Assembly: GCA_963662285.2 (NCBI GenBank)
Contig: CAXXMV010000008.1
Location: forward strand, 928,001-992,000
DNA: 64,000 nucleotides
Reading direction: 5' to 3'
DNA from: a bacterium
Lineage (GTDB): Bacteria > Hinthialibacterota > Hinthialibacteria > Hinthialibacterales > Hinthialibacteraceae
Position numbers and translations under genes: made by a program. Positions 33,942 to 63,486 of this stretch are shown here, in pieces. The notes beneath the pieces are model-generated. The model had not been told where the DNA came from. It was given only the letters and a program-made list of their open reading frames with translations, and made no database searches. Each line of letters starts with the position of its first letter. The stretch's first letter is position 1.

Positions 33942-35762
33942 CTAATAAGTTTTCCATTGGTGAACGCCCGATTCCTGCCCCACTGCGGAGAATTGCAATC
34001 CCAGAATGCGCGTTCCTTCATAGCGCTGGTAATTTTTCGAAGACCTAAGATCGGTATATGTCGCCTGCCCTGTAGGCAGGTGAGTGGGAAGGATGCGGCA
34101 CAGGTTCATGGCGAAAGGCGCGGTACGATTTCTATCCACCAGTTTAACCAGCAACGGTTGCCGTCCGGCTTTCAAATGTATCTTTTTAGTTGGTCCGCCC
34201 GGCAGTCCGAAATTTTGATAGGAAGAATCATTATGATAAACCTGTTCGCCGTCAATCCAGACCGCGCAGGCCTCATCATGAGCAATCCATAATTCAGCAT
34301 CCTGTTCCTGAGGAACCGTCAGCCAGCAGAAAGCATAGTACACGCCGCTGTTGGCGGCGCCGTAATAGCCTTCAAAATCTATGATATCATCTGAGAAATA
34401 GATGGGTTCCGTCCAACCACTTTGCTGCGGCGTTGCAATCACATCTTTATCAGGTACATCAAAATATTGTCCGTCGATATCAATGCCATCGAATTTATTA
34501 ACCAACCATACGCGGTTGCTAGTTCCGAAATGCCCCCGGTTGCCCGAGTCGCCGCTTTTGGTTCGCTCAAAATAAAAGAGCGACTCTTTAAGCGAGTGCT
34601 CACTCAGCACTTCGATTTTATCTAAATCCATGGTTCCAAAACCTTCACGGGCAGCGGTATGCAGGTGAGATACGTCTTCCGGGTTCAAACCCATCAACAA
34701 AGCGCAGACGCTATCCAAAGCCACCATGTCAGTTCCAGCCAGAACCATATTGCGCCGCACAGATGGAGAATCTTTGGTTTTAGCGCGTTCTTTACAAATC
34801 GTCGCGTCAATCAGGCAGTAATCAGCTGGAGCAATGGAGGCCAAATCAATTATTTCATGTTCCACCGAATTCTGTTCAGGATAATTCTGGTGTAATCCAG
34901 GCGGGTCGCCGGGAGCGGGTCCGCCAATTCCTTTATAAGTACCGTATTTCGCTCCGGCTGCGGTTCCGATATAATTCTTGAGGCAGACAGTGATATTGGT
35001 ATTATGGATTTTCATGACGGGCACATTAATCAAGACATCCGCGTCGAGTATCGCTTCATGAACCCAATAAGAGGGATATTCGGGGAAGTCGATCCATTCA
35101 GGAGTCTGCACCAAACGTATGCCTTCGAGCGGTTCATCTGGCGTTCCGAAGTTGGCGTCAAGCAATACCACATCAACTCCTTTAGCAGCGAGCCGCTGTT
35201 GCATAGCTTTGTAACCTGCTAGCGCCAAACCATCACCGACCGTCGCGCCGCCGGTATTAAATCTGGTATTACGCATAGCGCTGGAGAGCCAACCGCCCGC
35301 CGCTTCAGCAACGGTATAGTTCAAATCGCCGGGACCGTTGTCTTCCATCCACATAATTAATCCTTCAATAATCCGTGGATCGGTATTGACTCCATTTTCT
35401 AATGGCGCCATTTCAACGATATTCGGTTTGATAACCACGTTAGCGCCGGGGAACAAAAGATCATCCAGCCCGCCATGTAGGTCCAGCGCACGATAAGCCA
35501 GTTCTATTATTTGCTCTGAACTTAGTTCCTGATCCAAAGCAACCGGATTATCCATGACGCTATCATCAGAGCGCATCAGCGCAATTTTGGTGGTATAGTC
35601 TGGAGATATACCGTCATTTTTCAGTTGAGAAACGGGGACCGCTTCGACGTGCGATGGAGATTGCAGAGTTGAAGCCAGGTCGAAACCTACGAGAATAAGT
35701 AATCCTATAATTGCTATTACGCGAAGTTTTAAGAATGAACGAATATGTCTTGGCTGAATCAT
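33942..35762 (-). CDS. Exported DUF362-domain protein with a C-terminal beta-sandwich (PA14-like) domain and terminal V-x-x-W-x-x-Y motif
   Basis: N-terminal hydrophobic signal; VVIKPN, TDPRII, INVPVMKIH, CLKNYIG, DMVALD; ends SGVHQWKTY. Confidence 0.82.
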   Translation of the reverse strand: MIQPRHIRSFLKLRVIAIIGLLILVGFDLASTLQSPSHVEAVPVSQLKNDGISPDYTTKIALMRSDDSVMDNPVALDQELSSEQIIELAYRALDLHGGLDDLLFPGANVVIKPNIVEMAPLENGVNTDPRIIEGLIMWMEDNGPGDLNYTVAEAAGGWLSSAMRNTRFNTGGATVGDGLALAGYKAMQQRLAAKGVDVVLLDANFGTPDEPLEGIRLVQTPEWIDFPEYPSYWVHEAILDADVLINVPVMKIHNTNITVCLKNYIGTAAGAKYGTYKGIGGPAPGDPPGLHQNYPEQNSVEHEIIDLASIAPADYCLIDATICKERAKTKDSPSVRRNMVLAGTDMVALDSVCALLMGLNPEDVSHLHTAAREGFGTMDLDKIEVLSEHSLKESLFYFERTKSGDSGNRGHFGTSNRVWLVNKFDGIDIDGQYFDVPDKDVIATPQQSGWTEPIYFSDDIIDFEGYYGAANSGVYYAFCWLTVPQEQDAELWIAHDEACAVWIDGEQVYHNDSSYQNFGLPGGPTKKIHLKAGRQPLLVKLVDRNRTAPFAMNLCRILPTHLPTGQATYTDLRSSKNYQRYEGTRILGLQFSAVGQESGVHQWKTY

Positions 35763-35904
35763 GGTGAAATTCCTTGCTATGCTTTTGATTAAAATTTGAG
35801 CTAATCATCAGGCTTCTTTATATTAATACAATATAGCAGAATCATATTATTGTAACTGTAAATATTTATTCTTGAACAGCCATCGATAAAACAATAAATT
35901 AAAA

Positions 35905-37308
35905 CTACTTATAATCCATTCCAGCATTACTATGTTTACATGATTCACACCATGCAAGTAAATGCTGTTTCATCTTCTCAACAATTTTCGGTTTCTTGTG
36001 AGCAATATCATGCTTCTCGCCTGGATCAGCAAGGATGTCATAGAGTTCAAAAGGTATGTTATTGTTGGATCGATAGATTTTGTATTGATTATCGATCAAA
36101 GCTAATTGGTCTCTGGACTGGAATGCGATAGGAGAAGGCCGCTGCCTGGTTTGTCCTTTGAGAAGAGGCTTCAGACTAACTCCATCCAATGGTTCAGGCT
36201 TCCCTTCCCTTTGGTATCCCAGTATATCCAGCACGGTTGGTAAATAGTCGCTGGTCGAACAGGGAGCATCAATAGTTTCTGGACGTTTAATCATTGCAGG
36301 ATACGTCAAAAGCGCTGGAACGCGAATGCCGCCTTCGTATAGGCTGCGTTTTCGTCCACGCAGATATTTGGCTGATCCATTATGATCGTTCTTCGTCTTA
36401 CCTTCCGGGCCATTATCGCTGCAGAACCACATCATGGTATCATCATATGCGTCAAGTGATTTCAATTGATCCCGCAGCCGCCCGACTTGCTCATCCATAG
36501 CTGATATGCAGCCATAGTAATGCTGCGCCGCTTCATTTTGATCTTTATACAATGCGCGATGCTGCAAACCCGCCACTACAGGCAAATGAGGCGCGTGAAA
36601 CCATACCACAGCAAAGAAAGGCTTATCTTGATTCACCGCATTCTCTATAAAAGGGATCACCCGGTCCATGATGATGCGCGAATCATCGCCCTCCAAATTA
36701 TCTTCCACCCGCTGATCAGGCCCCGTCCAATAATAAGTTCCATAGGGATCATTGGTTCCTGGTTTTCGCATTGGATTATATGTCGGAACCTTGGCTTCAG
36801 TGGAAAAACAGACGTCAAAACCATTGCGCCAGGGAGGCGAGAAATGATCTTTGCCCCGTGGGCCGCCTCTGTTGCTTTCATTAATTTTAGTGTTTAGCGT
36901 TCCAAGATGCCATTTACCGAAATGGCCAGTTGTATAACCAAGAGATTGCAACGCTTCAGCCAGGGTGAATTCTTGAGGCTTCATAAAACCAGCGTTGGCG
37001 AAGTATACGCCGTACCGATAGGGATGGCGACCAGTAAGACAACTGCCGCGAGTAGGAGAACAGACCGGCGCTCCGGAATACCAACGTTCAAAGCGGATGC
37101 CTTCGCGACTCATAGCATCTAAATGAGGCGTCTTTAAAATGGGGTGACCATTATAAGCGACATCTCCCCAACCCTGGTCATCGGTCATGCAAAGTATAAT
37201 GTTGGGCTTGCGCTTGAATTCTTTCGCCGCCAGCAACAGTTTGGTATGGTAGAATGAAATAACGCCAAGCCCCAGTATTTGAAGTAGATCGCGACGATTG
37301 ATCATCAT
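35905..37308 (-). CDS. Sulfatase (Tat-type signal)
   Basis: NRRDLL; PNIILCMTDDQGWGD; CSPTRGSCLTGR; GKWHLG. Confidence 0.92.
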   Translation of the reverse strand: MMINRRDLLQILGLGVISFYHTKLLLAAKEFKRKPNIILCMTDDQGWGDVAYNGHPILKTPHLDAMSREGIRFERWYSGAPVCSPTRGSCLTGRHPYRYGVYFANAGFMKPQEFTLAEALQSLGYTTGHFGKWHLGTLNTKINESNRGGPRGKDHFSPPWRNGFDVCFSTEAKVPTYNPMRKPGTNDPYGTYYWTGPDQRVEDNLEGDDSRIIMDRVIPFIENAVNQDKPFFAVVWFHAPHLPVVAGLQHRALYKDQNEAAQHYYGCISAMDEQVGRLRDQLKSLDAYDDTMMWFCSDNGPEGKTKNDHNGSAKYLRGRKRSLYEGGIRVPALLTYPAMIKRPETIDAPCSTSDYLPTVLDILGYQREGKPEPLDGVSLKPLLKGQTRQRPSPIAFQSRDQLALIDNQYKIYRSNNNIPFELYDILADPGEKHDIAHKKPKIVEKMKQHLLAWCESCKHSNAGMDYK

Positions 37309-37535
37309 TAACCTCTCTATACTTTGGTTTTATCTTATCATTTAATCTGGCTCAATTATTACTCATTTTTAAGAAGACTATTATCTATTATAAGCAAAGA
37401 CATTTTTCAATTAATTCCATATTTCCTATTTCACACTATTCTAAGATATACTTAACTCTATAATAAATTATAGATAATTATTATTCGCCTATAAATACAT
37501 AAAACACAATATAATTATACACAACCAGGTGCTTA

Positions 37536-48152: not shown

Positions 48153-51100
48153 ATGAGAAACTACTGTATTGATTTGTGTTTAATTGGATTACTAATTATT
48201 TGCGCTCTTCCGGCAGGTTCAGACGTCGTCATCAATGAGATCATGTATCACCCTGAATCGGATCAAGATGATGATGAGTATATAGAGTTAGTCAACACTG
48301 GATCAGAAACGGTGAATCTGTCGGATTGGTCTATCAAAGGTATAAATTATAAGTTCCCGGCGGGAAGCGAAATTAATTCCGGCCAGTATTTGGTGGTGGC
48401 CAAGAATCCCGCCCGGTTCCAATCTACTTACAGCATCGAACCGTATGGGCCTTATGATGGGATATTGAGAGACAGCGGCGAGTCGTTGCGTCTGGTGGAT
48501 GCCAACGAGCAGGAAATTGATAGTGTGGAATATGATGATGAAAATCCCTGGCCGATCGCCGCTGATGGATTAGGAGCATCGCTGGAATGCATCAATCCAT
48601 CTTTTGATAATGCTCATCCCCGTAACTGGCGCGCTGCGGGTCAGGGATCGGAGTGGCAATACGTTGAAATTACTGATCAAGCCACAGCCACGCGGCTCTA
48701 TTTTTATTTGTAGGGCGCGGGCGAGTGCCTGATTGACGATGTTCAACTAATTAGTCATGAGACGTCAATCCAGGCGGGTTCATATCAAAGCATCGCTCAT
48801 CCAATGCAGTACCGGCACACGCCGGGAGGAGCGCAATACCTGGATATGCATTTGTCGAATACGGCAATTTTATTCGACGATACTATCAATCCACAAACAA
48901 TAAAGCTGCCTGATAATCCCAAGATCATGATTTTCGCTATAACTTTAACGACTTCGGAGGGCGAAGTCCAACTGGATTTATCGGAGGCTTTCAATCTCGA
49001 CGGCATCTCATGGTCAGATAATATTACAGACGGAAACCTGGATGGCGGAGGCTGCAGCTACGCGGCTGAACTGCTGCCGGAGGATCATATAATTACATCC
49101 GATGACGAACTGCCACAGGTTAATTGGACTATGGGATCGTACACGGATGGAGACCTTAACTGCATACGCTGTGAAGGTCAGAGCATTACTGTACCATCCG
49201 GTATGTATACCGGAATATACCTGCTGGCCAGCGCGGTTAACACAAGCACCGAAGAGGAACTGCTTACAGCCTCTAGTCCCAGTATGCAGCGCCAATTTCC
49301 AATTTCAGTTACTGATTGGGCTGTTGCTTTACCGGAAGGCGTCACAGGACCAGCAAACCTCGTACCCAATGGCAATTTCGAACAGAGCAGCGGACGATGG
49401 AATACATTGGGCGCTTACGCCGGTTCGTATATCTGGTCGGGCGATGCGCATGAGGGATCGTACTGCATGCACGTCGTGGGTACGGATGCAGGTTTGGATC
49501 ACAGATCGAGCGTTTGGCAAACTATAGCCGCAGCACAGATCGGCGAGACATATACTTTATCATTCTGGGCCAAGGGATTATCAGGCAACAGTACGCTGGT
49601 CAGCCGGTTCTATGGCGACAGTCATCTCACCGAGACGCAATTATCGGCCAAGGGATCTCCGGGATTACTCAATAGCGTTTTTTCCGTAGATATACCTCCA
49701 TTCATTACTGAAGTTTCGCAATCACCTGAAGAACCTTCCTCAGATGATCCACTGCTGATAACTGCTCGTATTGAGGATATCGAGGGACTTACGTCAACCG
49801 TTTTGACCTACCAGGTTGGTAATGGTTTGCGGCAGGATATTGCGATGTCGGATGACGGTTTCGACGGTGATGCTGCTGCGGGAGACGGAATATACTCCGC
49901 GCAGATACCCGCCGCTCCATCGCAGAGCATCATTCGCTATAAAATACTGGCGACCGATAACGCCGGGCAAGTTACTTCAGCGCCGCTGAAAAATGAACCA
50001 ACCGAAGTTTTCGGCGCGTTTGTCTATGACGGTGAACTGCAATCCAAGACGCCAATTTATTGGCTTTTCCTGAGTAATGAGGTTTATCAAAACCTTTTGA
50101 GGTATCCGCAAAGCAATGATTTCGTAAAAGGAACCGTGGCCATAGGTGGAAGAGCGTATGATAACGTAGGCATAAGGTTCCGGGGTCAATGGGCCAGATC
50201 GTGGCCTAAGAAAAGTTGGAAACTCCGCTTCAATAAAGATAACTATTTTGATGGTAGACGCACAGTCAACCTGAATTCTGGATATCATGACCGCGCTTAT
50301 ATCCGCGAATACCTCTGTTACCGTTTCTACCGTGAAGCCGGATGCCGGGCCTGTAAGGCTCAGATGGTTCAAGTATATCTAAACGGAGAATTCTATGGGA
50401 TTGAGGTGGATGTCGAGCAGGTCAATGAGCAGTTTCTCGAAGCAAACGGCCTTGACGCTGATGGTAATATTTATAAGAGCAAACAGGGCGGAGATCTACG
50501 AAAACTTTCATCAGAAAGTGCATATCATGGTCCTTATGAGAAAAAGACCAACGAAAATGAGGATTGGAGCGACCTGAAAGAATTCGCTGACGGATTGGCT
50601 GATACGCCCTCAAGCGAGATACATGCCTTCTTGCATCAAAATGTTCCAGTAGACGAAATACTGCGTTACTGGGCGGCGACTACCATCTTGCAGAATTGGG
50701 ATTCGATCATTAAAAACCATTATCTATACCATGATACCAATGATACGGGACTCTGGTATATGATTCCCTGGGATCTCGACCGAACCTGGGGAGAGTATGC
50801 CAATTGGAATCTAGGCGCTGAGCAGGATATTCTGGCGGGTATGCGTCAGCATCCACCCGGATTCGGATTGCCCAGCGACTGGTGGAACCGGCTGATTGAC
50901 GCCATGCTCAAACAACCGGATATGCTGGAACAATACTATGGTCACATTCGCTACCAGCTCGATAATATTTTCACTGAAGAGAATATAAACCAATGGATCA
51001 GCGAACAGTATCAGAACATCTATGATCTTGTACCCGCCGACCAACAGCAATGGGGAACGCATGGCGCGTGGCAGCCTTTCAGGCAGGAGATCGAGAATTG

Positions 51101-51179
51101 CAAGGATTTCGTGCGAGACCGCCGCGCATTTCTTTACCAGTTTCTACCTGTGGATGTTGCGGATTGGCAGGTTTATTAA
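48153..51179 (+). CDS. Secreted lamin-tail-domain + carbohydrate-binding + CotH kinase protein, interrupted by one in-frame TAG (48711-48713)
   Basis: ORFs 48153-48713 and 48804-51179 are in the same frame with no other stop between (YFYL*GAGECLIDDVQL); VVINEIMYHP..EYIEL LTD; RFRGQ..KKSWK, KNHYLY, IPWDLDRTWG CotH; ends DVADWQVY. Confidence 0.82.
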
Positions 51180-51196
51180 TATTGCATACATAGTAT

Positions 51197-51233
51197 ACAG
51201 TTCAAAGTCCCTATTTGAGGGACTTTGAACTGT
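51197..51233. terminator. Bidirectional terminator-like palindrome between convergent genes
   Basis: ACAGTTCAAAGTCCC..GGGACTTTGAACTGT. Confidence 0.75.
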
Positions 51234-51243
51234 CATCATTATG

Positions 51244-54200
51244 CTAAAAGGTTCTCTCCTGCAACGCCATCCAGGCTTTGATCGGGTAACTACAGGCGCA
51301 TTTGGATGCCCCGTCAGGAATCAAGACCATTCCTCCGGCGGGTATGGCGTTAAACCAGCAGCCTACCCTTATGCCGCCGAAATTTTCAGTATCCGTGGCA
51401 TCACGGCTTAAATCCCAATACCCCAGCGTCGCTGAACGATACAGCAGAAGATTGGAACTTGCGCAAATTTGACCGCAGCCATAAGAACGCTTAAATTTAA
51501 ATGGTTGTGGTTGACCGGTTTTTAATTTCCACGCCCCGCCTTCGGCGTAAATGATATCATCGTTGATCATGGGACGGGTGACGTATTGCGCCTTAATATC
51601 CCACAAGCATTGGCCGTCGAGCATAGAAAAGGCCGCCATTCTTCCTCCTATTTCGGAAGGCAATTCGAAAAAATTGTGTTTCACTGCTTTAAAATTCATC
51701 AGTGCGATTCCGTATTTTTCACTTAGGGCAAGTTGAGTACCATAGATGCCTTGATCTTGACGCCAAAGTATATCGCCGCGCTTGGCATCCAGAGCAATCA
51801 ATTCGCCGAAAGGGTGCTCGCCGAATTTTAATTTGGGGCCATGCTTCTTGACCAAACGCGGATCAGTAATTCGACCTTGATTATCACTTGATGGATTATT
51901 AATTCGATCTTGCTGCGCAATTGGTCGATCAATCAACAAAATTTTTCCATCAGTGACCGCGATTGCGTTATTACGGATGGAATGTTCGGGTTTGTATTGC
52001 CATTTAATCTCTCCGCTATCGACATCCAAACCGAATAATAAGACGGATTCGGTGTAAAGATGGATATTTGAATAACGGGGACTGACTTTATGATCCTGGT
52101 TGGATACTGTGCCAAAAATCATGCCATCGTGGTAGGCCAAATATCCCCATGCCCGGTTCTGGTTATCCTGCTCCAATAAAGGCGTTTTATATTCGCGGAT
52201 CAGTTTTCCGGTGGCTATATCAATGCGAATACATTTATCAGCGTAACATACATAAACGCTGTCATCGCTCAGGCAGTAATTCCCGCCAGTGTCGCCGATG
52301 GCGACATCGTGATGGATTCCATCATAATCTTTGAGAACGCCTTCGATCTCATAGGTCCATAAGCGGCGTCCGTTATAGGCGTCGAGAGCGCAAAGACCGT
52401 TGACGCCTTCTACAACCAGGTATCCCTGATTACTCAACGGCGCCGGTCCCTGTCCGTGGCGATTGGCCAGTTCGAAATCGACGTCACGATACCACAGCGG
52501 GGTAAACGGCGCTCTAACCTCATCAATAGAACAGATGGTATTGGCGGCGTTGGCGTTTTGATGGGTCCACGAACCGTCGCCATCCAAAGCCCCGCGCGTG
52601 TGAACTTTCATTGCTTGGGATGCGCCGATGCATACCTTACCTCCATAGGGACGTTGCAAACGGCGCATTTCCGCAACCGTTTTATCCGATAGATCATGCA
52701 TCAATGAATGAGAGGAGATAACCAGATTAGCGAAACGTCCGGGATAGCCTGAGTTTTCTGGATCGGCATTATGGACCGTAACGCGCGCGCCGTACAAGTT
52801 GGCTCGATCTAATTTCTTTCGCGCTTGGGATGCTTTGTCCGCGTCTGGCTCGACGATGTAGATTTGCAGTTTAGTGCGCTTAGCCATTGCGAGCGCCAGG
52901 TCACCGCTGTCGCCGCCTAGATCGACGCATATACCTTCCGTTACTCCAGTTTTTCGTATGATCTCTTCCGCAGCGGCTTTGTAATCGAACGCTGCGCCTG
53001 AATTATGTTCGATGGTCTTGGCAATATTCTCTGTAATTGGTTGTACCGCATCAGCGCCAAAGCAATATATCCAACCTTGATCCGTACTTACGATCAGCCG
53101 ACCATCAGAGACCGCCAATCCAAGGGCATTTCCTTCAACTGCTATTGATCCAATTTCCGTTTTCGCGTCCAGATGATAAAGGCAAACACGATTTTCTTCA
53201 GCGAGCACAACGGTTGAAGCCGCAACAATAATATCGTTCGCTTCACCTTCCCGCTTGATTTCCATCAATGACTCTAATCCGGTATAGGATATCACTGTTC
53301 CTTTACGGTCGTTCTTTTGTTTCTGTTTCCAATGATGAACCATAAAACGATTGCCCAATGATTGAACCAGCCCTTGCGGAATAGCTGCCAGCACGCCTCC
53401 ACCGTAGCGCTCGGTTGCGGCGCCGTTTTGCATGTCGAACAGGCATCCCGCATTGAGAAAATATCCTCCTGCGGACATAGTTCTCACTCCGCCCCTCCAT
53501 TGGTTCTCTTGCAGATGATAGTATTTAAGTTTCCCCGTATCGCGTTGAAATACGGCTGGCACGGAACGGCCATTGGGAACTATCAAACATTCAACCGTAA
53601 CGGCCATATAACCTTGAGGCGTAACGCCGCTTCTAGCCATGGCGCCAGGGTGAGGCTGAGGCATCATCAGGCAGCCCGCTTGATCGTTACGCCAGATTTC
53701 CTCGCCCGTTGCTGCATTCAACGCCAGGATGAAAATTCCATCGTTAGGCCAAATCCCCGCACTGCAATATACGATATCATCATAAACCACCGGGCCGCCC
53801 CGCATGGGCCAATGGGAAATCATCCGGTCGTTGCCTAAACACTTATAATCGTTCGGGCCGCCGCGTACTTTCCATAACAGACGCCCATCTGTTATTTTGA
53901 TGGCGTATAGCCATCCATCATCGCTGCCTGCAAATATCCGGTCGCGCCAGGCAACCGGAGCAAAACGCACTGGACCTTCAGTGAAGAAGGTCCAAAGTTC
54001 GACACCGGTTTTCAAGTCGATAGCCCTGATTTGATCATCCGATGAACTGCCAAAAATTACTGTATTTTGAACTATGACAGGATGGAATGCATCATCAATG
54101 CGCATCCGGTTCAAATCACGGTCGCCAGGCATTTTGGGCATCTCACCCGAAAAAAGTTCGTCATTTGGCCAAGCCGGTTTGGGAGCATGAGTCGACTTGT

Positions 54201-54354
54201 ATATCCAATTCAATGATAAGTTATGCGGGATAGTTTCCTTGGTATATCCATCCCGCTCTGGATTAGCGCGATACATGGGCCAATCAGCTCTGCTGGTAAT
54301 AGCGGATGCTACCCAAGCGATGAGTATTACATTTATATAAATACTTTTTTTCAT
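51244..54354 (-). CDS. PQQ-binding-like beta-propeller repeat protein with central SAM-methyltransferase-like domain
   Basis: Signal peptide then DWPMYRAN; repeated A.D..TG..LW; central GICVDLGG segment; RSYGCG and RVGCW..PAGG C-terminus. Confidence 0.82.
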   Translation of the reverse strand: MKKSIYINVILIAWVASAITSRADWPMYRANPERDGYTKETIPHNLSLNWIYKSTHAPKPAWPNDELFSGEMPKMPGDRDLNRMRIDDAFHPVIVQNTVIFGSSSDDQIRAIDLKTGVELWTFFTEGPVRFAPVAWRDRIFAGSDDGWLYAIKITDGRLLWKVRGGPNDYKCLGNDRMISHWPMRGGPVVYDDIVYCSAGIWPNDGIFILALNAATGEEIWRNDQAGCLMMPQPHPGAMARSGVTPQGYMAVTVECLIVPNGRSVPAVFQRDTGKLKYYHLQENQWRGGVRTMSAGGYFLNAGCLFDMQNGAATERYGGGVLAAIPQGLVQSLGNRFMVHHWKQKQKNDRKGTVISYTGLESLMEIKREGEANDIIVAASTVVLAEENRVCLYHLDAKTEIGSIAVEGNALGLAVSDGRLIVSTDQGWIYCFGADAVQPITENIAKTIEHNSGAAFDYKAAAEEIIRKTGVTEGICVDLGGDSGDLALAMAKRTKLQIYIVEPDADKASQARKKLDRANLYGARVTVHNADPENSGYPGRFANLVISSHSLMHDLSDKTVAEMRRLQRPYGGKVCIGASQAMKVHTRGALDGDGSWTHQNANAANTICSIDEVRAPFTPLWYRDVDFELANRHGQGPAPLSNQGYLVVEGVNGLCALDAYNGRRLWTYEIEGVLKDYDGIHHDVAIGDTGGNYCLSDDSVYVCYADKCIRIDIATGKLIREYKTPLLEQDNQNRAWGYLAYHDGMIFGTVSNQDHKVSPRYSNIHLYTESVLLFGLDVDSGEIKWQYKPEHSIRNNAIAVTDGKILLIDRPIAQQDRINNPSSDNQGRITDPRLVKKHGPKLKFGEHPFGELIALDAKRGDILWRQDQGIYGTQLALSEKYGIALMNFKAVKHNFFELPSEIGGRMAAFSMLDGQCLWDIKAQYVTRPMINDDIIYAEGGAWKLKTGQPQPFKFKRSYGCGQICASSNLLLYRSATLGYWDLSRDATDTENFGGIRVGCWFNAIPAGGMVLIPDGASKCACSYPIKAWMALQERTF

Positions 54355-54477
54355 ATTTTCGAATCTCCACGTTTATCCAAGTATGCAATAATCAAAGGCT
54401 ATCATACCACTGAGAACAGGAAAAGCCCGGTATTATTGCAATTTAACACAATAAATGAAATTAAAAGGAGGCTATCT

Positions 54478-54519
54478 TCAACCCTCTCCTAGCCTCTCCC
54501 AATCTTGGGAGAGGAATGT
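54478..54519 (+). repeat. REP-D copy, near-identical to 26186-26227
   Basis: Direct comparison, 40 of 42 identical. Confidence 0.85.
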
Positions 54520-54605
54520 ATGCTTCATTATGAGAATTATGCAAACCTCTCCAGCGTCAGCTCTATCTGTGAGAGAGTAGTGGTGTTAGAATTCAACAAA
54601 ACTAT

Positions 54606-55208
54606 ATGGACAATAACATAACCAATATGTCTGAATCTATCGGCGAAGTAATTGTTACCAATACCAGCGAAATTATCGGGCAATGCCACCGGGGCGTTCC
54701 GACATTTGAGTATGGCAGTTTCATTATGGCTGGAAAGACGGCGCAATGCGTTGGCGTGGTTTATAACGTTGAAACTGCCAGCGTTGACCCTAACCGGCGG
54801 GCCACTGCTATCGAAGTTGATGAAGACAACCTGGACGCGGTTCATCCCCATCTCAAAGCGCTGCTGCGCAATCAGTTCTATGCGCTGTTGATCGGTACTA
54901 TGAAAGACGGCAAATTCCAATACGGCCTGCCGCCTACGCCGCCGGGGCTTCATGCTCAAGTAGTTCCCTGCTCTGACGACGACATACGCGAACTACGTAA
55001 GCAACCCGGTTTTCTACGCATTATTCACGATTCGGGCAAGTCATCATCTGAAGAGTTGATCCTGAATTGCTGCCGACATTTGTTATATAGTTTTGAACGC
55101 AGTGAAAAAGCATTATCCATCGGCAAAGCCCTGTCAGACATCTACCGCGACGACTACGACGCGCTGCGGCGCATAATAAATCGATTGGAATCATGGCAAA
55201 ACGCATAG
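54606..55208 (+). CDS. HAS-barrel domain protein
   Basis: IGEVI..PTFEYGSF..GVVYNV.T.SVDPNRR..LPPTPP.LH; overlaps the herA start. Confidence 0.75.
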   Translation: MDNNITNMSESIGEVIVTNTSEIIGQCHRGVPTFEYGSFIMAGKTAQCVGVVYNVETASVDPNRRATAIEVDEDNLDAVHPHLKALLRNQFYALLIGTMKDGKFQYGLPPTPPGLHAQVVPCSDDDIRELRKQPGFLRIIHDSGKSSSEELILNCCRHLLYSFERSEKALSIGKALSDIYRDDYDALRRIINRLESWQNA

Positions 55209-56950
55209 ACGATATAAAATCTCTTGGTGTTATAACATCCGGTTCCCTGGCTGAAGGCTTGGAGATGCGTCTCGATCCTTCCTATTCAGTGGAACAGGTT
55301 CGCGCTGGAAAATTCGTGGTTGTCGAAGGAAGTGAATTCGATTTCTTCTGCATGATAACCGACGTAATGCTTGATGCCTCATCGGCCTCGATTCTGCGCG
55401 ACCCGCCGCCGCGCTCTTCGCTGTTGAGCGACGTGCTGGCTGGCGACCATACCTATGCCACCGTATCGCTCAAACCGATGTTAATGCTGGAACGCAAAAT
55501 CGCAGAGAAGGATTTCGACCGAGAAGAAGATCTGCGCCCGGTTAAAAGCATCCCGGCTCATTTTTCTCCGGTGCGCGAAGCGAGCAATGCGGATATCGCC
55601 AAAGTCTTCGGCGAGGAAGAAAAGAAGCGTTATTTCAATCTGGGAACCCCGTTGGATATGGATAACGTCGACGTCTGTCTTGACCTGGACCGTTTCATTG
55701 AACGATCCAACGGAATCTTCGGCAAAACCGGCACGGGCAAAACCTTCCTGACCCGTCTGGTGCTGGCCGGTATGATCCGCAGCAATAAGGCGGTCAACCT
55801 GATCTTTGACATGCATAGCGAATATGGCTGGGAAACACGTTCTGAATCGGGCGCCGGTAAAGATTCATTCGTTAAGGGTCTGAAGAATATCTTCCAAGAA
55901 AAAGTCTTGATCTGCACGCTTGATCCTGAATCGGCCAGTCAGAGGAATGTGGGCGTTGATTTTGAGATCGAGATTCCACTTAACTCGATTGAAGTGGAAG
56001 ATATCGAACCGCTGCAAGATGAACTGAAACTGCACCCCACCGCTATTGAAACCGCCTATATCCTGCGCAACCGTTTTGGCAAGAGCTGGCTGCAACGCCT
56101 GATCGAGCAGGACGCGGCTGACCTTAAAGACTGGGCTGATGAAATCGGCGCCAACAAAGAGAGCCTGGCCGCGCTATACCGCAAACTGGGCAAGATCAAA
56201 AACCTTAAGTTTGTGGTTGAAAAAAGCGAAAAGCAGATCGAAGGCGCATCATCCAACAAAGCCTCAATCAATAAACTGGTGCAGGAACTGCGCTCCGGCA
56301 AGCATATCGATCTGGAGTTCGGGCGGGTATCCAACATGCTGGCTTATCTGCTGGTGGCTAACCTGATCAGCCGCCGCATCCATCAGGCATGGGTCGATGA
56401 CGCCGAAAAATATATGTCTACCCAAAAACTGGAAGATAGACCGCGACCCTTGATGATTACCATCGAAGAAGCCCATAAGTTCCTGAATCCCTCAGCGGCG
56501 CGTCAGACCATATTCGGAACCATCGCCCGCGAATTGCGCAAGTATTTCGTCTCGCTGCTGGTGGTCGATCAACGGCCATCCGGCATTGATGATGAGATCA
56601 TATCGCAGTTGGGCACGCGCATTACATCGCTGCTCAACGACGAGAAGGATATCCAGGCCGTCTTCACCGGAGTCTCCGGCGCTTCGGCGCTGCGCAACGT
56701 TCTGGCTTCGCTTGATTCCAAGCAACAGGCGCTGATTCTGGGACACGCCACGCCTATGCCTATCGTAGTAAAAACCCGGTTCTATGGACCGGATTTCTAC
56801 GCCGCTATGGGAATGCAATCCAAAGAAGAAAAAGCCGAAAGCAGCGCGAAGATAACATCACTCTTTCCACCGGGAATAATTTATCCCCAATCACCCTTAT
56901 TAAATATATCCTCATGTGATAAATTGGATATTCTGAAAAGAATCTTGTGA
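55193..56950 (+). CDS. herA: HerA-family DNA translocase/helicase ATPase
   Basis: N-terminal HAS barrel; Walker A GKTGTGKT; FDMHSEYG; Walker B IEEAH; DQRPS; true stop may be 56877-56879 if one G is spurious. Confidence 0.85.
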   Translation: MAKRIDDIKSLGVITSGSLAEGLEMRLDPSYSVEQVRAGKFVVVEGSEFDFFCMITDVMLDASSASILRDPPPRSSLLSDVLAGDHTYATVSLKPMLMLERKIAEKDFDREEDLRPVKSIPAHFSPVREASNADIAKVFGEEEKKRYFNLGTPLDMDNVDVCLDLDRFIERSNGIFGKTGTGKTFLTRLVLAGMIRSNKAVNLIFDMHSEYGWETRSESGAGKDSFVKGLKNIFQEKVLICTLDPESASQRNVGVDFEIEIPLNSIEVEDIEPLQDELKLHPTAIETAYILRNRFGKSWLQRLIEQDAADLKDWADEIGANKESLAALYRKLGKIKNLKFVVEKSEKQIEGASSNKASINKLVQELRSGKHIDLEFGRVSNMLAYLLVANLISRRIHQAWVDDAEKYMSTQKLEDRPRPLMITIEEAHKFLNPSAARQTIFGTIARELRKYFVSLLVVDQRPSGIDDEIISQLGTRITSLLNDEKDIQAVFTGVSGASALRNVLASLDSKQQALILGHATPMPIVVKTRFYGPDFYAAMGMQSKEEKAESSAKITSLFPPGIIYPQSPLLNISSCDKLDILKRIL

Positions 56951-56976
56951 ATTTCACAATGCTACAGGAGGATATT

Positions 56977-58424
56977 ATGCAAAAATTTGTATTTCTAATG
57001 TTGGTCAGCCTTTTATTCATTTCATTTACGTCTTCTCCTTATTGCGCAACTCTCATCGTAAAACAAGATGGTTCGGGCGATGCAAGCACTATCCAGGCGG
57101 CGTTTAATGCAGCCGGCGGATGGCGATATAATCGAGATCGGCGACGATGGAACATACAATGAAGATGTAACCGTCAGCCCCTTTCTAGCTGCGGTGGGGC
57201 ATCCCCGCCGCCCCTCTGGTCTCATTCACTCTGCAAGCCGCGGAAGGCAAGCATCCGGTGATTCAAGCGGCTAATGCAGAGTCATCCCAACGCATGAGCG
57301 CATTAGGCGTACCCGGGCGCGACATGCTGGGATTCAGCATCTGGGGATGTCAACATGTTGTTGTAAAAGGCCTGGAAATCGCCAATTTCGAAAATGTAGT
57401 CAATGAGTTCGGCGTCCAGTCATCATTGGTTATTGCTGATTGCGATGATGTCATTATTGAGGATTGCACAATCCGCGGCCCCAATGAACGATCAGCAGGC
57501 GAAGGCAATGCCATTCTCATTGCCGGCGTACAGGCCAATCCATTCCGCGCGGATAATATAACTGTCCGCAATTGCCTGATTACAGAATCGCATTACGGCA
57601 TCATATCAGCCATGTTCCAAAAAGGCTCTGGAGTCGACCCGATCAATGTAACCATCGAGGATTGCCAGTTTATCAATGGTTTTGAATCGGGCGTAGACGT
57701 CGACAACGCCGAAAACATGGTTATCCGCAATTGCCTGTTTGATAATTATCACCACGGCATTCATTTCGCTGGAGGCAGTTCGCTGGTGGAAGATTGCATA
57801 ATCAAGAACTCAAAGGGAGAAGGGCTGGAGTGTCAGGTTGATACCAACTGGAACGAATCCATAACCAACGTTATCGTGCTCCGCTGCGCCATCCTCGGCA
57901 ACGGATTAGAGACGGATGATGCTCCAGGCGTGGAATGCACCGATGGACCGTTACTGTTTGAGAACTGCATAATCGCAGGCAACACCGGACCGGGCATTAA
58001 AGTTGCTACCGACTCAAACTCCGCGGTTAACGCAGTATTCGACCATTGCGATATATATGAAAACTATGGCTTGGCGGAAATCATGATTTTCGGCGGAGGG
58101 GATCAGACCGCTAAACTGACCGTAACCAACAGCAACATTGTCAGTTCCGGCGGCGGCTTCGAGAATGAGTTGGATCCATCAGTGGTCACCGCGCATCATA
58201 ACAATGTCGCCGTATCCTTCGACGCCTATTACAATGTAGACGCCACTGACAGCGTCGCCAATGATCCCCTGTATGAATCACCCACCAACAATCCGGATGA
58301 TTTCTCGTGGGATGGCTTCAAACTTAAAACCGGCTCACCATCGTTGAACGCTGGTGAAGATGGATCGACTATTGGATATACCGGGTCGTCTGTGACATTG
58401 ATTAATGCTTGGGAGATATTTTAG
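56977..58424 (+). pseudogene. Secreted right-handed parallel beta-helix (pectin-lyase-like) protein, apparently frameshifted twice
   Basis: AGGAGG RBS + signal peptide; VKQDGSGDASTIQAA continues in +1 frame (ADGDIIEIGDDGTYNE) at ~57115 and again +1 (IPAAPLVSFTLQAA) at ~57197; beta-helix repeats; ends TLINAWEIF. Confidence 0.75.
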
Positions 58425-58438
58425 ATTAGGCGGCTTGT

Positions 58439-58513
58439 GGTGGGCTACGCTTCGCTTTTAGCCCACCCTACCTGCCACTCACAGGCGCCAAGGCGAATCT
58501 AACCCTTGGCGCC
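58439..58513. repeat. REP-C hairpin plus palindrome of two REP-A feet
   Basis: GGTGGGCTA..TAGCCCACCCTAC at 58439-58471; GGCGCCAAGG..CCTTGGCGCC at 58484-58513. Confidence 0.75.
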
Positions 58514-58543
58514 AGAAAAATTATATTAATAGAGAAAAAATTA

Positions 58544-58870: not shown

Positions 58871-58908
58871 CAATACCCACCCAATATTATTGATTAATTG
58901 CATGATCC

Positions 58909-58951
58909 GGTGGGTCATAAAGCGCGACCCACCCTACGGGGCTTGGCGCCC
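58909..58951. repeat. REP-C hairpin plus REP-A foot
   Basis: GGTGGGTC..GACCCACCCTACG then CTTGGCGCCC. Confidence 0.75.
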
Positions 58952-58969
58952 ATCTTATATATAAAGTCA

Positions 58970-60388
58970 CTAGCAATTCGGTAGATACGCTCCGATTTTT
59001 TTTAGGCGTTGCTGCAAATTCTTGATCGAAATACTGCGGGTGTCTGTTTTGTTTTCGATAGCCATGGCGGCGGCCATAGCTGTTGCCTGTCCAGTGATGA
59101 AACACCCCGGCATCACCCGGAGAGAACCTTGCATATAACGGTCGGTACTGACGCACCGCCCGGCAACCAATACGTTCGATAATTTCAACGGCGTCAATGA
59201 GCGGTAGGGAATCCCGTAACTTTCGCCTTTACCATATCGAAGATTCTTGAAATCCTGGGCATATTTTTTATAATCGTTATCGCCCGGTTTGGCGGCATGG
59301 ATATCAACCGGATATGAATAGCGTCCAATTTCATCATCAAACACGGCCCGCGTCTTGAAATCATTCAAATTCAAAACATAATCGCCCATGATGCGCCGGG
59401 TTTCACGGATGCCCAGCATTGACCCCATGGTAACCAGTTCCATATCAGAAAAACCTTCGAGGTACTCTTTGTAATAACGCTCGTATTCAAGAATCATTTT
59501 ACGCGCCCAAAGCAGGGCTTTAGTAACCGAACGTTCGTCGGAACCATCCACGCCGAATGTATGCCCGATATTGCCGCCGCCCAGGTGTTTTCCAATTCTC
59601 CACATCCCGGGCAGATGCCGGTCTTCCTGGCTGAAAACACCATCCGCAATTGCTTTGGGTAAGAGGGCTTCCTGTTTATGCATCCCAAATTTACGCGCTT
59701 TATCCCAATCGATATCAGCCCAGACGCTGCACAGCGTCCCGGCCATCATATTGCCCTCTTCATCACCTTTTTCAAAAGGCGCTCCCGACCAGACGGCCAG
59801 GTCGCCATCCCCCGTGCAATCAATAAACATCTTGGCTTTGACGGCGAAAATTCCGCTTTTGGCCGCCAGAATAGCGCATTGGGTTTGATCGCCATCAGTT
59901 TGAACATCGATCAACCTGGTTTCAAAAGTGAAATCGACTTTGGCCTCCAGCATCATTTCATCGTATAACCGCTTGAGGACTTCCGCTTTGATCGTCACGT
60001 TGCTATCCGGACCGTTGCCGCCTTTTTTATTCAATCGTTTTGCAATTTCTTGTCCGATTCCACCAGCCAGAAAATTCTCTCCATCGGTAAATTGCATAAA
60101 AAGCGGCAAGAGACCTCCCGTCCCCATTCCCCCGAAAGAATTCTGCCGTTCAGCCACAAAAACCGTCTTATTCTGGCGGGCCGCCGTGATGGCCGCTGCA
60201 ACACCGGACGGCCCTCCTCCAGCAACAAACACATCCACTTCATGCCGGATAGGAATTGTTCTTTGGATGGTGATGCTTTTCTGATTTGACAAATTACCGG
60301 CATTGGCTTGTACGCCGGGCGCCATCAATCCACTCACGCTTGTTGCGGCCAACGATTTAATAACAAAATCACGACGATTCAGCGACAT
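58970..60388 (-). CDS. Tat-exported FAD-dependent oxidoreductase (FAD_oxidored family)
   Basis: NRRDFV; VAGGGPSG; IDCTGDGDL; GIRETRRI.G; IPYRSL.P; VAGRC. Confidence 0.9.
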   Translation of the reverse strand: MSLNRRDFVIKSLAATSVSGLMAPGVQANAGNLSNQKSITIQRTIPIRHEVDVFVAGGGPSGVAAAITAARQNKTVFVAERQNSFGGMGTGGLLPLFMQFTDGENFLAGGIGQEIAKRLNKKGGNGPDSNVTIKAEVLKRLYDEMMLEAKVDFTFETRLIDVQTDGDQTQCAILAAKSGIFAVKAKMFIDCTGDGDLAVWSGAPFEKGDEEGNMMAGTLCSVWADIDWDKARKFGMHKQEALLPKAIADGVFSQEDRHLPGMWRIGKHLGGGNIGHTFGVDGSDERSVTKALLWARKMILEYERYYKEYLEGFSDMELVTMGSMLGIRETRRIMGDYVLNLNDFKTRAVFDDEIGRYSYPVDIHAAKPGDNDYKKYAQDFKNLRYGKGESYGIPYRSLTPLKLSNVLVAGRCVSTDRYMQGSLRVMPGCFITGQATAMAAAMAIENKTDTRSISIKNLQQRLKKIGAYLPNC

Positions 60389-60540
60389 GGTAATCCTCCA
60401 TCATAGAGTTATCTCAATAGGCAATAGCCATAAAACCAAGATAACCCGGTAGAATAGATAATCTAGCCTAATTTCATTTTTATTTCCGATTTGATCATAA
60501 AATATTATGGTTTTTCACTTAATTTGTTTTATAGAATAGT

Positions 60541-60694
60541 CCCATTGGTTTTGTTTATCAAATATCGTAGGTGATCGCATCAAGGGCTGACCGCATTGCG
60601 GTCTTGCCCTTGGCGCCCGTGTACCATCGCTTTGGTCTATCCAATATCATGGGTGATCGCATCAAGGGCAGAAAGAACGCTGCCCTTGCCACCC
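60541..60694 (+). repeat. Degenerate tandem duplication (period 82 bp) of flank + REP-A hairpin
   Basis: 60541-60578 vs 60623-60660 match at 30 of 38 positions, each followed by ATCAAGGGC..GCCCTTG. Confidence 0.8.
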
Positions 60695-60843
60695 TCCACT
60701 ATCCGCTAGTTTCTATAAAATTGATTTGCCAAAAACCATAATTCATGCTATACATACTTAAGTAAAGGATATCCCATATCCGATGATTCATCGTATCTCT
60801 GGGAGCAGACAATCGAAAGAATAATTTTATATAGGTTATTACC

Positions 60844-61341
60844 ATGTTCCCATTCAAGAAAAAGAAAAACCGATTAAGTCCTCAGCAGGAAAAAGCTGAA
60901 CAAGAAGCCATAAATATCTTGAACCGTGCAATCAAAATGCTGGAAAAAGACCCGCGGAATGCAGAAGAAGCAAAGCGTTTGCGTTTCGAGGTTACTAATG
61001 ATCTGTTGCCCAAGAACAAGATGTATATCATTGGCAAACATCCCCGCAGCCTGCTTAAAGAGTTGGATATAACCATCCAACACGCCTATTTCAAGCAGAT
61101 TACCAATAATGGCCAATTGCATAAAGACGAAGTTCCTGTAGTTCTAAGCGCAGCAACCCAAAAAGCATGCGATTGGTGGACCAACCGGTATGGAACATTA
61201 AAAAAGAATACTCAATATAAATTATATTGGACTATCGGCATTTTCCTGGTTTTAACAGTCTTTATAGTGATACTGTTATTCCTGATGGGATCGCTAGGGG
61301 GCAATAGTTCATATACTAACTCTTTCAAGTGGATGTCATAA
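60844..61341 (+). CDS. Hypothetical protein with C-terminal TM helix
   Basis: 165-aa ORF; TTGCCA-17-TATACA promoter-like sequence at 60726-60754. Confidence 0.65.
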   Translation: MFPFKKKKNRLSPQQEKAEQEAINILNRAIKMLEKDPRNAEEAKRLRFEVTNDLLPKNKMYIIGKHPRSLLKELDITIQHAYFKQITNNGQLHKDEVPVVLSAATQKACDWWTNRYGTLKKNTQYKLYWTIGIFLVLTVFIVILLFLMGSLGGNSSYTNSFKWMS

Positions 61342-61539
61342 AAACAAGTAATAATTCAAGAAGAATAATCTAAACAACCAAAACCTCAAAAACCTTTGCA
61401 CTTAATACTTTCAAGACTCATTCAGTTAAGTTAAATACAATCGGGTATATAGCAGAAGGATAAATTCCTATTGACATTTGACTAAGAAGATAGATAAAAT
61501 TGATTTCACCATAGATCGACGATTTGCGAGGGAACAATC

Positions 61540-63486
61540 ATGAACCAAGAAAATATTTCAGTTCAGATATGTAATCCTAGGTGCACTTTATCGAATTGCA
61601 TGGATATTTTATGCTTGACTCAGCTTTGGTCGGGAAAATACCTCTATCTGACAGGGCTTACGCTGATTCTGCTTTTGCTTGCCATTCCTCTGAACAGTTA
61701 TACTGAAGACGATGCTCCAATACAGCAATTCGGTGAAGGAAGCGCCGTCTTTGCCGCTTACTCATCGACCGGTAAGTATATTATCACCGCCAGCGAAGCG
61801 GGTCATGCAATCCTGTGGAATGCGGAAACAGCTGAGGTTTTGAAACGCTTTACCGGGCATACAGGCGCTATCAGCATGGCAATCCTGTCTCCAGATGAGA
61901 GTAAACTGCTCACGGGAAGTACAGACGGCGCAGCGAAATTGTGGGATATTGAAAGCGGTCAGGCAATTCAAACTTTCAGTGGACATGGTGGAACTGTGGA
62001 ATCGGTCGCCTTTTCGCCGGATATGATGCGGATATTGACCGGATGCGCTGATGATACGGCCCGGCTTTGGGATGCCGCGACAGGGGAATTGATCCGCACC
62101 TTCAGTGGAAGAAGTCCGGCGTTGTTTACGCTGGATGGAATGAAAGTACTGACATTAATCAATCTATGGAATGCAGAAACAGGCGAAATGATCCACACGT
62201 TTCCTGCTGACGGATACAGTATGGGAGCGTCGATATCTCCTGATGACACGCGAGTTCTATCTGGAGGAGGCGTCACTGAATCCGATTACGGCAAAGCCAG
62301 GATGTGGGATATCGAAACAGGCGCCCTGCTGAGATCGTTTTCAGATACTTCCACTTATCAGATTACTGCTGTCGCATTCTCAGGTGATAGTACAAACATA
62401 CTCACAGGAAATCTGGATGGGGACGTTAAACTTTGGGATGCCGAAACAGGTGCACTTATTCGTAAGTTTTCTGGTGATTCGGGAGAGATTCTCTCTGTTG
62501 ATATGTCACCGGATAATTCGACAATTATGGCTTGTACTAAAGATGGCGTAGTACAACTATGGAAAACAGATACTGGTGAAGCAAGCAGTACGCTACCAGG
62601 ACATTCGACGACCGCTTATACAGCCGCATATTCTCCCGATGGAATGAGCATACTTATTGCAGGATGGGGATATGACGCCATACTATTTGATGTTAAGACA
62701 AGCAGGGAAATCCGAAAGTATTCCGGCCACTCCAATCGCGTCATATCTGCGGCCTTCTCTAAAGATGGAACTAAAATACTGACCACAAGTTGGGATAATA
62801 CGGCAAAGATATGGGATGCCAATACAGGCGCCGAAATTCGTTCGTTTCCCATGTCAGCGCTTGCTTTCAATAAATCAGCCTATTTCTCACCCGATGGAAT
62901 GCAAGTCTTAATTGCCAGTAGTTCTTCAGCGAATCTATTCAATGCATTGACAGGAGAAAAAATCCGCACATTTGATGGCGCCGCCCCGGTAGCATTCTCA
63001 CCGGATGGGAAATCATTGTTAATAGGACCGGGCGATGAAGCCGCATTGCTTGATATACAAACTGGCGATGTCATCCGAACTTTCAGCGGACATCCGGGAT
63101 ATTTCCTGAGTTGCCTGGCGTTCTCGGCGGACGGGCAATGGGCGCTAACCGGAGCTGATACTGCGAAAATCTGGGATGTGGAGACAGGTAAGGAACTTAG
63201 AACATTTAGCAGCGCAACGCATAGTGTAGGTCGTGCGGTTTTTTCGCCTGACAAACGTTTTTTGCTAACAGGAAGTTTAATTAATCAAAACGCGATATTG
63301 TGGAATGCGGTGATGGGTAATAAAATCCGGATGTTTGAGGCGCATAATGGAGCGGTGGAATCCGTTGCTTTTTCTCCGGACGGACTTCACATCCTGACAG
63401 GATGCACCGACGGCATAGCGCGGATATGGGATATTTCCGACATTGCTTCTACCTCGGAAATAAGTGATTTTACGTTGTATAAGTAA
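61540..63486 (+). CDS. Exported WD40-repeat protein with terminal I-x-x-F-x-x-Y motif
   Basis: Hydrophobic signal segment; many GH..V.SVAFSPDG..LTG..D.TA.LWD repeats; ends TSEISDFTLYK. Confidence 0.92.
   Translation: MNQENISVQICNPRCTLSNCMDILCLTQLWSGKYLYLTGLTLILLLLAIPLNSYTEDDAPIQQFGEGSAVFAAYSSTGKYIITASEAGHAILWNAETAEVLKRFTGHTGAISMAILSPDESKLLTGSTDGAAKLWDIESGQAIQTFSGHGGTVESVAFSPDMMRILTGCADDTARLWDAATGELIRTFSGRSPALFTLDGMKVLTLINLWNAETGEMIHTFPADGYSMGASISPDDTRVLSGGGVTESDYGKARMWDIETGALLRSFSDTSTYQITAVAFSGDSTNILTGNLDGDVKLWDAETGALIRKFSGDSGEILSVDMSPDNSTIMACTKDGVVQLWKTDTGEASSTLPGHSTTAYTAAYSPDGMSILIAGWGYDAILFDVKTSREIRKYSGHSNRVISAAFSKDGTKILTTSWDNTAKIWDANTGAEIRSFPMSALAFNKSAYFSPDGMQVLIASSSSANLFNALTGEKIRTFDGAAPVAFSPDGKSLLIGPGDEAALLDIQTGDVIRTFSGHPGYFLSCLAFSADGQWALTGADTAKIWDVETGKELRTFSSATHSVGRAVFSPDKRFLLTGSLINQNAILWNAVMGNKIRMFEAHNGAVESVAFSPDGLHILTGCTDGIARIWDISDIASTSEISDFTLYK

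Follow-up and report, generated by a model that had tools for sequence, protein, structure and literature searches.

The window analysed here, a stretch of 64,000 nucleotides from a bacterium of the phylum Hinthialibacterota (contig CAXXMV010000008.1, positions 928,001 to 992,000), carries four genes whose products belong to four unrelated folds according to Pfam (DUF362, LTD/CBM/CotH, right-handed beta-helix and WD40) and end in variants of one short C-terminal sequence, in the following referred to as the tag (Table 1). A prediction made earlier from the letters of this window had quoted the four C-termini as a candidate protein-sorting signal; the quotations are exact, and all four proteins carry the tag when scored with a position-specific scoring matrix (PSSM). 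The other 46 open reading frames (ORFs) called in the window score -5.2 bits or less. In the CotH protein the profile match covers residues 457-777 of 791 and ends 14 residues before the C-terminus, and in the WD40 protein the last WD40 stretch covers residues 594-631 of 648, ending 17 residues before it. Thus, the tails of these two proteins lie outside the recognizable domains.

Table 1. Tagged genes and their tags in the window (positions of the window), and secretion and pilus gene clusters elsewhere in the same genome (G000; contig and position).
Feature	Position	Strand	Evidence or score
Exported DUF362 protein gene, 606 residues, tagged	33942..35762	-	Pfam DUF362 5e-26; signal-peptide-like start
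DUF362 tag SGVHQWKTY, last nine codons	33945..33971	-	12.8 bits
LTD-CBM-CotH gene, tagged, in-frame TAG at 48711-48713	48153..51179	+	Pfam, shared frame, homologs
CotH tag VDVADWQVY	51150..51176	+	20.9 bits; beyond CotH profile match
Right-handed beta-helix gene, tagged, 5' part in other frames	56923..58424	+	Pfam Beta_helix 3e-20
Beta-helix tag TLINAWEIF	58395..58421	+	14.3 bits
WD40 beta-propeller gene, weaker tag	61540..63486	+	Pfam WD40, 7 stretches
WD40 tag SEISDFTLY plus extra K, F replacing W	63454..63483	+	11.1 bits at offset 1
Secretion/pilus clusters	C1:555-567 kb, C6:875-890 kb, C7:11.8-23.8 kb, C1:1217-1227 kb, C6:774-784 kb		

The tag is by no means restricted to the window. For the whole genome (7.29 Mb in eight contigs, estimated to be 92.5% complete), crude gene calling by codon log-odds and greedy removal of overlaps yielded 5191 predicted proteins, the C-termini of which are fixed by the stop codons. 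The PSSM, which comprises 14 columns and was built iteratively from this genome, identified 181 proteins ending in the tag at a cut-off of >=12 bits and 199 at >=8 bits, that is ~4% of the predicted proteins or about one in twenty-five, whereas not a single one of 14490 random internal windows reached 8 bits with the same matrix. The regular expression suggested in the original prediction for a genome-wide search of C-termini likewise proved productive, retrieving 149 proteins as compared to 5.9 expected from its internal frequency, and the shorter pattern W.[VILT][YF]$ retrieved 103 as compared to 1.6 expected. Tryptophan at position -4 is 3.1-fold over-represented across all predicted proteins. 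The position of the tag is strictly C-terminal, with internal copies of the motif all but absent: the nine-residue core occurs at >=14 bits at the very end of 145 proteins, one residue away from the end in 28 and two residues away in one (174 in total), as compared to seven occurrences elsewhere in 2.11 million positions. Residue 664 of an 803-residue ORF (G000 C2:537179-539590, minus strand) is the site of the strongest of these seven internal matches (22.4 bits), for which loss of a stop codon, fusion of genes or an erroneous ORF call may be responsible.

The consensus reads T-x-[VI]-x-[DNE]-W-x-[LI]-[YFH]-COOH, sometimes with one extra polar residue. This is a sharper form of the consensus proposed originally. 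Among the 181 carriers, position -9 is T in 116 (V in 32, S in 23), -7 is V in 135 and I in 38, -5 is D in 62, N in 39 and E in 27, -4 is W in 168 and F in 10, -3 is S in 58, M in 38 and E in 36, -2 is L in 107 and I in 42, and -1 is Y in 108, F in 36 and H in 25. No residue follows the motif in 150 carriers, one follows in 30 and two in a single carrier; basic residues are found there only in some carriers, in which the one extra residue is R or K. A sub-variant ending in W-E-L-[YF]-R is the main form in a high-GC family of the phylum, f6 (genome G028, loci L123, L131, L132 and L151), and a minor one elsewhere, with cases in the present genome at G000 C1:40570, C8:275185, C8:469816 and C8:521360. 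Synonymous codons vary between the copies of the tag, and a back-translated DNA pattern matches the genome 56 times as compared to 0 times for its reversed control.

Carriers of the tag are predominantly exported proteins. A signal-peptide-like N-terminus was called, by a crude and generous heuristic rule, in 173 of the 181 carriers as compared to 45% of the other proteins (Fisher p = 3e-47), and several of the eight exceptions, including the beta-helix protein of the window, look like truncated or frameshifted ORFs. The expectation that the tag would not be equally frequent in cytoplasmic proteins is thus confirmed. Similarly crude rules detect a lipobox in three and a twin-arginine (Tat)-like signal in five of 190 carriers. 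Just after the core of the signal peptide, the sequence x-[AGS]-Q is present in 41% of the tagged as compared to 18% of the other signal-peptide-like proteins, which recalls the 'Q-rule' of Bacteroidota, that is an N-terminal glutamine after cleavage by signal peptidase I. By homology, the 199 carriers group into 96 components, including 75 singletons, and a Pfam search of 40 of the carriers returned 81 families, none in more than two members; CBM9, FG-GAP, beta-helix, WD40, S15 peptidase, LamG and LRR are among them. Taken together, the tag is confined to Sec-exported, soluble and mutually unrelated proteins.

Outside the tag these proteins have no common C-terminal sequence, as 44 aligned C-terminal 40-mers have nothing in common apart from the last nine residues. 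The AlphaFold2 model built for one carrier (20 orthologs; mean predicted local distance difference test score, pLDDT, 86.8) is confident except for the signal peptide and the tail. The last eight residues have pLDDT values below 50 and no secondary structure, and form a tail on beta-sandwich domains. According to this model, the tag is a free, disordered tail and not part of the fold.

Comparison of orthologs reveals that the tag is retained in evolution. Among 20 orthologs of one carrier (38-72% identity; from 15 genomes of family f1, one of f2 and three of f5), all 20 are tagged; the W is invariant, T/V, V/I, L/I/V/M/Q and Y/F/H are kept at their positions, and the x positions vary freely. 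This pattern of substitutions indicates that the tag is under selection. The same picture emerges for the proteins of the window. An ortholog of the DUF362 protein (locus L001, 68% identical) keeps the tag pattern at its end; a search of genome contigs for loci related to that of the DUF362 protein returned only two loci, one of which is an ortholog. Among homologs of the CotH protein with 41-79% identity, the tag forms the end of P0002, P0004, P0006, P0007 and P0009 and is followed by one further residue in P0008 and by nine in P0005, whereas P0003 has a degenerate version that is read through. A cluster of CotH homologs at 42% identity is labelled 'Candidatus Omnitrophota bacterium' in one source and simply 'bacterium' in others; published accounts of Poribacteria (PMC3909097) and of Hinthialibacterota (PMC9324843) describe similar lifestyles. 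Conservation at the ends of orthologs, required by the original prediction, is thus found for all 20 orthologs of one carrier, for L001 and for most of the close CotH homologs. More distant CotH/LTD homologs are untagged, and three of them have other modules among their Pfam domains, namely Por_Secre_tail in P0041 and P0042 and a dockerin domain in P0043. The presence of these modules on homologous proteins at the place where the tag stands here supports a surface or extracellular destination of the tagged proteins.

The tag is also widespread in the lineage. Matches to the DNA pattern number 13-46 in the other 19 genomes of family f1, 7-20 in f2, 3 and 15 in f3 and 4-25 in f5, exceeding the reversed control in all four families; these counts underestimate the tag in divergent families. 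The genomes G026 (family f4) and G028 looked empty by the DNA pattern and were considered as tag-negative genomes for profiling, but rejected, since both contain variant tags in ORFs adjacent to pilin genes. In G026 the endings are W-E-L-Y with or without an extra E, and G028 uses W-E-L-Y-R-COOH, for which a dedicated pattern gave eight matches as compared to 0 for the control, the highest count in the phylum. Thus, the tag is present in all six families of the phylum that were compared (35 genomes, one class). Among 366 genomes from outside the phylum, only G064 (12 matches versus 0) and G383 (8 versus 0) stand out. Both belong to family f36; 24 ORFs at their loci carry the tag, with an unchanged consensus.

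Analysis of the chromosomal neighbourhood of the tagged genes pointed to a second gene family. The commonest family among the neighbours comprises 116 proteins of ~200 residues with near-identical prepilin-type N-termini. In these GspG-like pseudopilin paralogs (e.g. C6:1705046-1705654 and C8:1011340-1012032), the N-terminal 30 residues are almost invariant and the heads variable; all 22 members scanned match the Pfam family N_methyl and also GspG below its cut-off, and seven match T2SSG. The link between tag and pseudopilin genes was absent from the original prediction. A GspG-like gene lies immediately beside 29 of the 199 tagged genes as compared to 8.7 +/- 2.8 in 500 permutations (maximum 20), about threefold the chance level, and the excess is confined to the offsets -1 (13 cases) and +1 (18 cases), as compared to ~4.4 per position. 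The neighbours are mostly on the same strand and separated by short gaps. Among 78 same-strand upstream neighbours of pilin genes, 16 (20%) are tagged as compared to a genome share of 3.8%, whereas untagged signal-peptide-like genes are not enriched at this place (30 of 78, that is 38%, versus 41%).

This association recurs in other genomes. In G021 (family f3), eight of 20 tagged genes adjoin a pilin gene, adjacency is also seen in G028, G026 and family f36, and for one carrier synteny with the upstream pilin gene is maintained in 10 f1 genomes. On the level of whole genomes, every one of the 35 genomes of the phylum contains the pilin family, and just five of the 366 outside it have the family in strength (G064, G383, G183, G232 and G337), as judged from first-look candidate counts, by which copy numbers are not comparable between genomes. 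Both clear tag-positive genomes outside the phylum, G064 and G383, are among these five; G337 has one pilin-adjacent tagged ORF and G183 a few tag-like pattern matches. Taken together, the tag is associated with pseudopilin genes both on the chromosome and across genomes.

The present genome also encodes secretion and pilus machinery. There are eight hits to secretin domains and 11 to ATPases of the GspE/PilB/PilT type, and the clusters listed in Table 1 include at least three resembling type II secretion systems (T2SS), one resembling type IV pili and one Tad-like cluster; GspF-, GspL- and GspM-like genes are present as well. Several cluster proteins have no Pfam family, for instance proteins of 642 and 266 residues beside a secretin of 975 residues; the same holds for three of ten proteins scanned from two T2SS-like clusters. 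The 642-residue protein was considered as a component co-occurring with the tag and dropped, as it was detected only in family f1 and weakly in f2 and not in the tag-positive families f3 and f5, where it may be too divergent for detection.

When compared to known C-terminal signals, the tail looks like an undescribed address label. At an E-value of 10 or below, the 44 C-terminal 40-mers share no model in Pfam and NCBIfam, the only repeated match being to WD40 repeats in two sequences; a match to an already described model, named originally as telling against novelty, was not found. A full-text literature search, which mostly did not extend to subscription journals and in which a mention in a supplement may have been passed over, returned no description of the tag. 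Like the sortase/LPXTG, PEP-CTERM/exosortase, GlyGly-CTERM/rhombosortase and MYXO-CTERM signals, the tag is short, lineage-restricted and C-terminal and is found on many unrelated exported proteins, and the logic of its discovery, multiple occurrences per genome near the C-terminus, is that of the CTERM domains. The CTERM sorting signals, as outlined in 10.1101/2023.06.07.544157, combine a signature motif with a transmembrane helix and an Arg-rich cluster. The tag, however, is usually followed by 0-1 residue, leaving no room for a transmembrane helix or a basic tail.

How can these observations be explained? The best explanation, to which we assign a probability of roughly 0.5, is that the tail represents an autonomous linear sorting tag of ~9 residues that is read after passage through Sec, probably by a T2SS-like apparatus with pseudopilins. 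The components of this explanation differ in strength: that the tail is a real sorting or targeting tag is likely, while its reading by a T2SS-like or pseudopilin apparatus falls somewhat short of even odds. We further infer that the tag directs proteins to or beyond the outer membrane. In this scheme, tagged proteins would be exported via Sec and signal peptidase I and fold in the periplasm, where the free disordered tail would be recognized by a putative, lineage-specific receptor that moves the protein across the outer membrane or holds it there. The tag would thereby take the role played on homologous proteins of other phyla by the C-terminal domain (CTD) of the type IX secretion system (T9SS) or by dockerin. 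A T2SS-like system with the expanded GspG-like pseudopilins, the genes of which are often operon-paired with tagged genes, would be the most likely candidate for the apparatus. The T2SS substrates resemble the tag carriers in being folded and Sec-exported, and this organism has T2SS-like genes. A classical T2SS, however, has one GspG, whereas this genome encodes 116 GspG-like paralogs. More tentatively, and in our estimation rather improbable as a whole, the tail may be the first linear, portable cargo signal of a T2SS-like machine: a pseudopilus made up of ~100 GspG-like subunits that can replace one another, or some component connected with it, might read the W-x-L-Y tail and push or display ~200 folded proteins through the secretin, with cargo-adjacent pseudopilins serving as cargo-specific adaptors.

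Several observations weigh against the best explanation. No pilin gene adjoins 170 of the 199 tagged genes, including the four of the window, and adjacency is weak in family f36, where two of 24 tagged ORFs lie immediately beside a pilin gene. The repeats of the association across families are not independent, since the genomes of one phylum are kin. Moreover, no tag was seen in 10 loci of G232, nor in 10 loci of G183; both genomes are pilin-rich, so that the pilin family is not sufficient for the tag. Secretion is also a poorer fit for one of the 40 carriers scanned, which contains a periplasmic-binding-protein domain. A receptor was not identified by the approaches taken, namely one complex prediction and the scan of the ten T2SS-cluster proteins: the latter contain neither PDZ nor another known C-terminus-binding domain, and the predicted complex of a tagged protein (residues 32-360) with its operon-neighbour pseudopilin (residues 27-202) received interaction prediction scores from aligned errors (ipSAE) of 0.01 and 0.00, which speak neither for nor against binding. 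Finally, section 7 of PMC10128026 reports T2SS substrates to lack a common sequence feature, by which account a linear signal would be unprecedented.

An alternative that deserves consideration, albeit a distinctly less probable one, is that the tail does not act in translocation and instead serves as a non-covalent docking or retention tag on a fixed surface component, such as an outer membrane protein, lipopolysaccharide, an S-layer or a pilus-like fibre, comparable to dockerin, SLH or WxL modules. The tail is aromatic, hydrophobic, exposed and disordered, many carriers consist of binding modules (CBM9, LamG, FG-GAP, LRR, WD40), the distant homolog P0043 has a dockerin domain, and pairing with pilin genes would likewise fit display on a fibre. 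However, for stable binding nine residues would make a very short anchor, a candidate receptor did not emerge, and the crossing of the outer membrane by ~200 folded proteins would be left unexplained. Docking is, moreover, compatible with the sorting tag proposed here and not exclusive of it; the T9SS CTD serves both translocation and attachment.

Two further alternatives start from the likeness of the tag to ligands of PDZ domains and to the beta-signal of outer membrane proteins, all of which have an aromatic residue at or beside the free C-terminus of an envelope protein. The tag differs from both in its W at -4, V at -7 and T at -9, in tolerating an extra residue and in that His can be terminal. 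It is unlikely that the motif addresses a periplasmic reader of C-termini (a PDZ protease of the Prc/CtpA or DegP/DegS type, or a chaperone) for maturation, quality control or regulated degradation. Such a reader would account for the strictly C-terminal position, the hydrophobic or aromatic last residues and the accessibility of the disordered tail, and a hydrophobic/aromatic C-terminal style is indeed common to PDZ ligands and to the outer membrane protein tails that activate DegS. Known PDZ ligands, however, use the last 3-4 residues at a fixed distance from the carboxylate, whereas conservation of the tag spans nine residues back to the T at -9 and 25 of the 181 carriers end in His; 150 of the carriers end exactly at the motif and 31 are extended by one or two residues. 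In addition, it is difficult to see why a degron should mark ~4% of the proteome and be kept throughout a phylum on stable enzymes, the link to pseudopilin genes would remain unexplained, and the ten T2SS-cluster proteins scanned contain no PDZ domain, although no genome-wide search for this domain was made.

Still less probable is a beta-signal-like motif that would be read by the beta-barrel assembly machinery (BAM) or the translocation and assembly module (TAM) and thereby couple the carriers to outer membrane insertion or to a partner barrel. A terminal aromatic residue, typical of the beta-signals of outer membrane proteins, is present as Y or F in 144 of the 181 carriers. However, a beta-signal consists of alternating hydrophobic residues in the last strand of a barrel, and this alternation is absent from the tag, which has S, M or E at -3 and W at -4; the carriers are soluble, non-barrel domain proteins, and the structural model places the tag, without order, at the end of beta-sandwich domains and not in the last strand of a barrel.

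Very unlikely is also the idea, part of the original prediction, that the tag is a minimal relic of the T9SS CTD (Por_Secre_tail, TIGR04183 / PF18962). This domain shares with the tag its place at the extreme C-terminus, its occurrence on heterogeneous Sec-exported soluble enzymes and adhesins, and its extent of a few percent of the proteome. Distant homologs carry Por_Secre_tail, and export via Sec and signal peptidase I as well as a Q after the signal peptide, both traits of T9SS cargo in Bacteroidota, are found here, the former in the 173 carriers mentioned above by the crude rule and the latter in 41% versus 18%. The CTD, however, is folded and its model spans 72 positions, in contrast to the nine disordered residues of the tag. 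With a cut-off of E<=10, CTD models match none of the 44 C-terminal 40-mers, and carriers cannot be aligned with each other upstream of the tag. TIGR04183 has no match in the six frames of the genome and SprA_N (PF14349) none in the genome, in searches that did not extend to PorV, PorU and GldKLMN; as the control genomes (14 in the case of SprA_N) were silent too, this is weak evidence. Thus, a lineage-specific sorting tag, as predicted originally, is the best reading of the data, and its proposed descent from the T9SS CTD is not borne out. Crude as the gene calls are, a chance, compositional or gene-calling origin of the tag is refuted by the internal windows, none of which reaches the score of the 199 C-termini, by the reversed DNA control together with the differing synonymous codons, and by the orthologs that keep the tag.

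If the tag directs localisation, the surface and secreted proteome of a poorly known phylum, corresponding to ~4% of its genes, would become readable from sequence; current predictors and hidden Markov model libraries miss it. Recognition of cargo by T2SS is described as unresolved in section 7 of PMC10128026, and tagged exported proteins encoded in operons with pseudopilin genes would make this question directly testable. A first clue to the function of the massively expanded GspG-like pseudopilins would likewise be at hand, and nine residues could serve as a tool for sending proteins to the surface or into the medium in such bacteria.

Two of the four tagged genes of the window are interrupted in the assembly. 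Pfam places LTD in an ORF at 48153-48713 and CBM_4_9 and CotH in a second one at 48804-51179; they share one reading frame, in which a single TAG separates them, and homologs of ~1000 residues have Q or E at the position of the TAG and no interruption. The two ORFs constitute one gene split by the TAG, so that the tag assigned originally to the LTD/CotH protein stands and the extent of its gene has to be corrected to include the LTD ORF. A search for sequencing runs containing 48600-58500 returned no RNA data and only three contig-level runs of one study, the best of which is probably the source sample; these confirmed the sequence. Logan contigs of the runs X1 and X2 show 0 differences over 48600-49913 and beyond, the TAG included, which is either a nonsense mutation (of a pseudogene or one that is read through) or a feature common to the assemblies. 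In the beta-helix gene, the ORF that was called (57258-58424) is without a signal peptide. The signal peptide and the first turns of the helix are found in the frame of 56923-57162, from which the gene continues in 57062-57274 and then in 57189-58424, reflecting either two frameshifts or assembly (indel) errors; contigs of the sequencing runs provide no cover of 57114-57196. The N-terminal signal originally ascribed to all four proteins is evident in the DUF362 protein, lacking in the beta-helix ORF as called and located there in other upstream frames; the WD40 protein has a hydrophobic segment at residues 36-50.

The window contains further features of note among these genes. An untagged exported protein of 1036 residues, encoded at 51244-54354 on the minus strand, contains both PQQ/BamB-like beta-propeller repeats and a class I methyltransferase domain. 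Two different short palindromic repeats, each predicted to form a hairpin, are located in intergenic regions at 54478-54519 and 58438-58471; with up to four substitutions, the genome contains 96 copies of the first and 50 of the second. Both have a very high contig depth and look like elements of the repetitive extragenic palindromic (REP) type.

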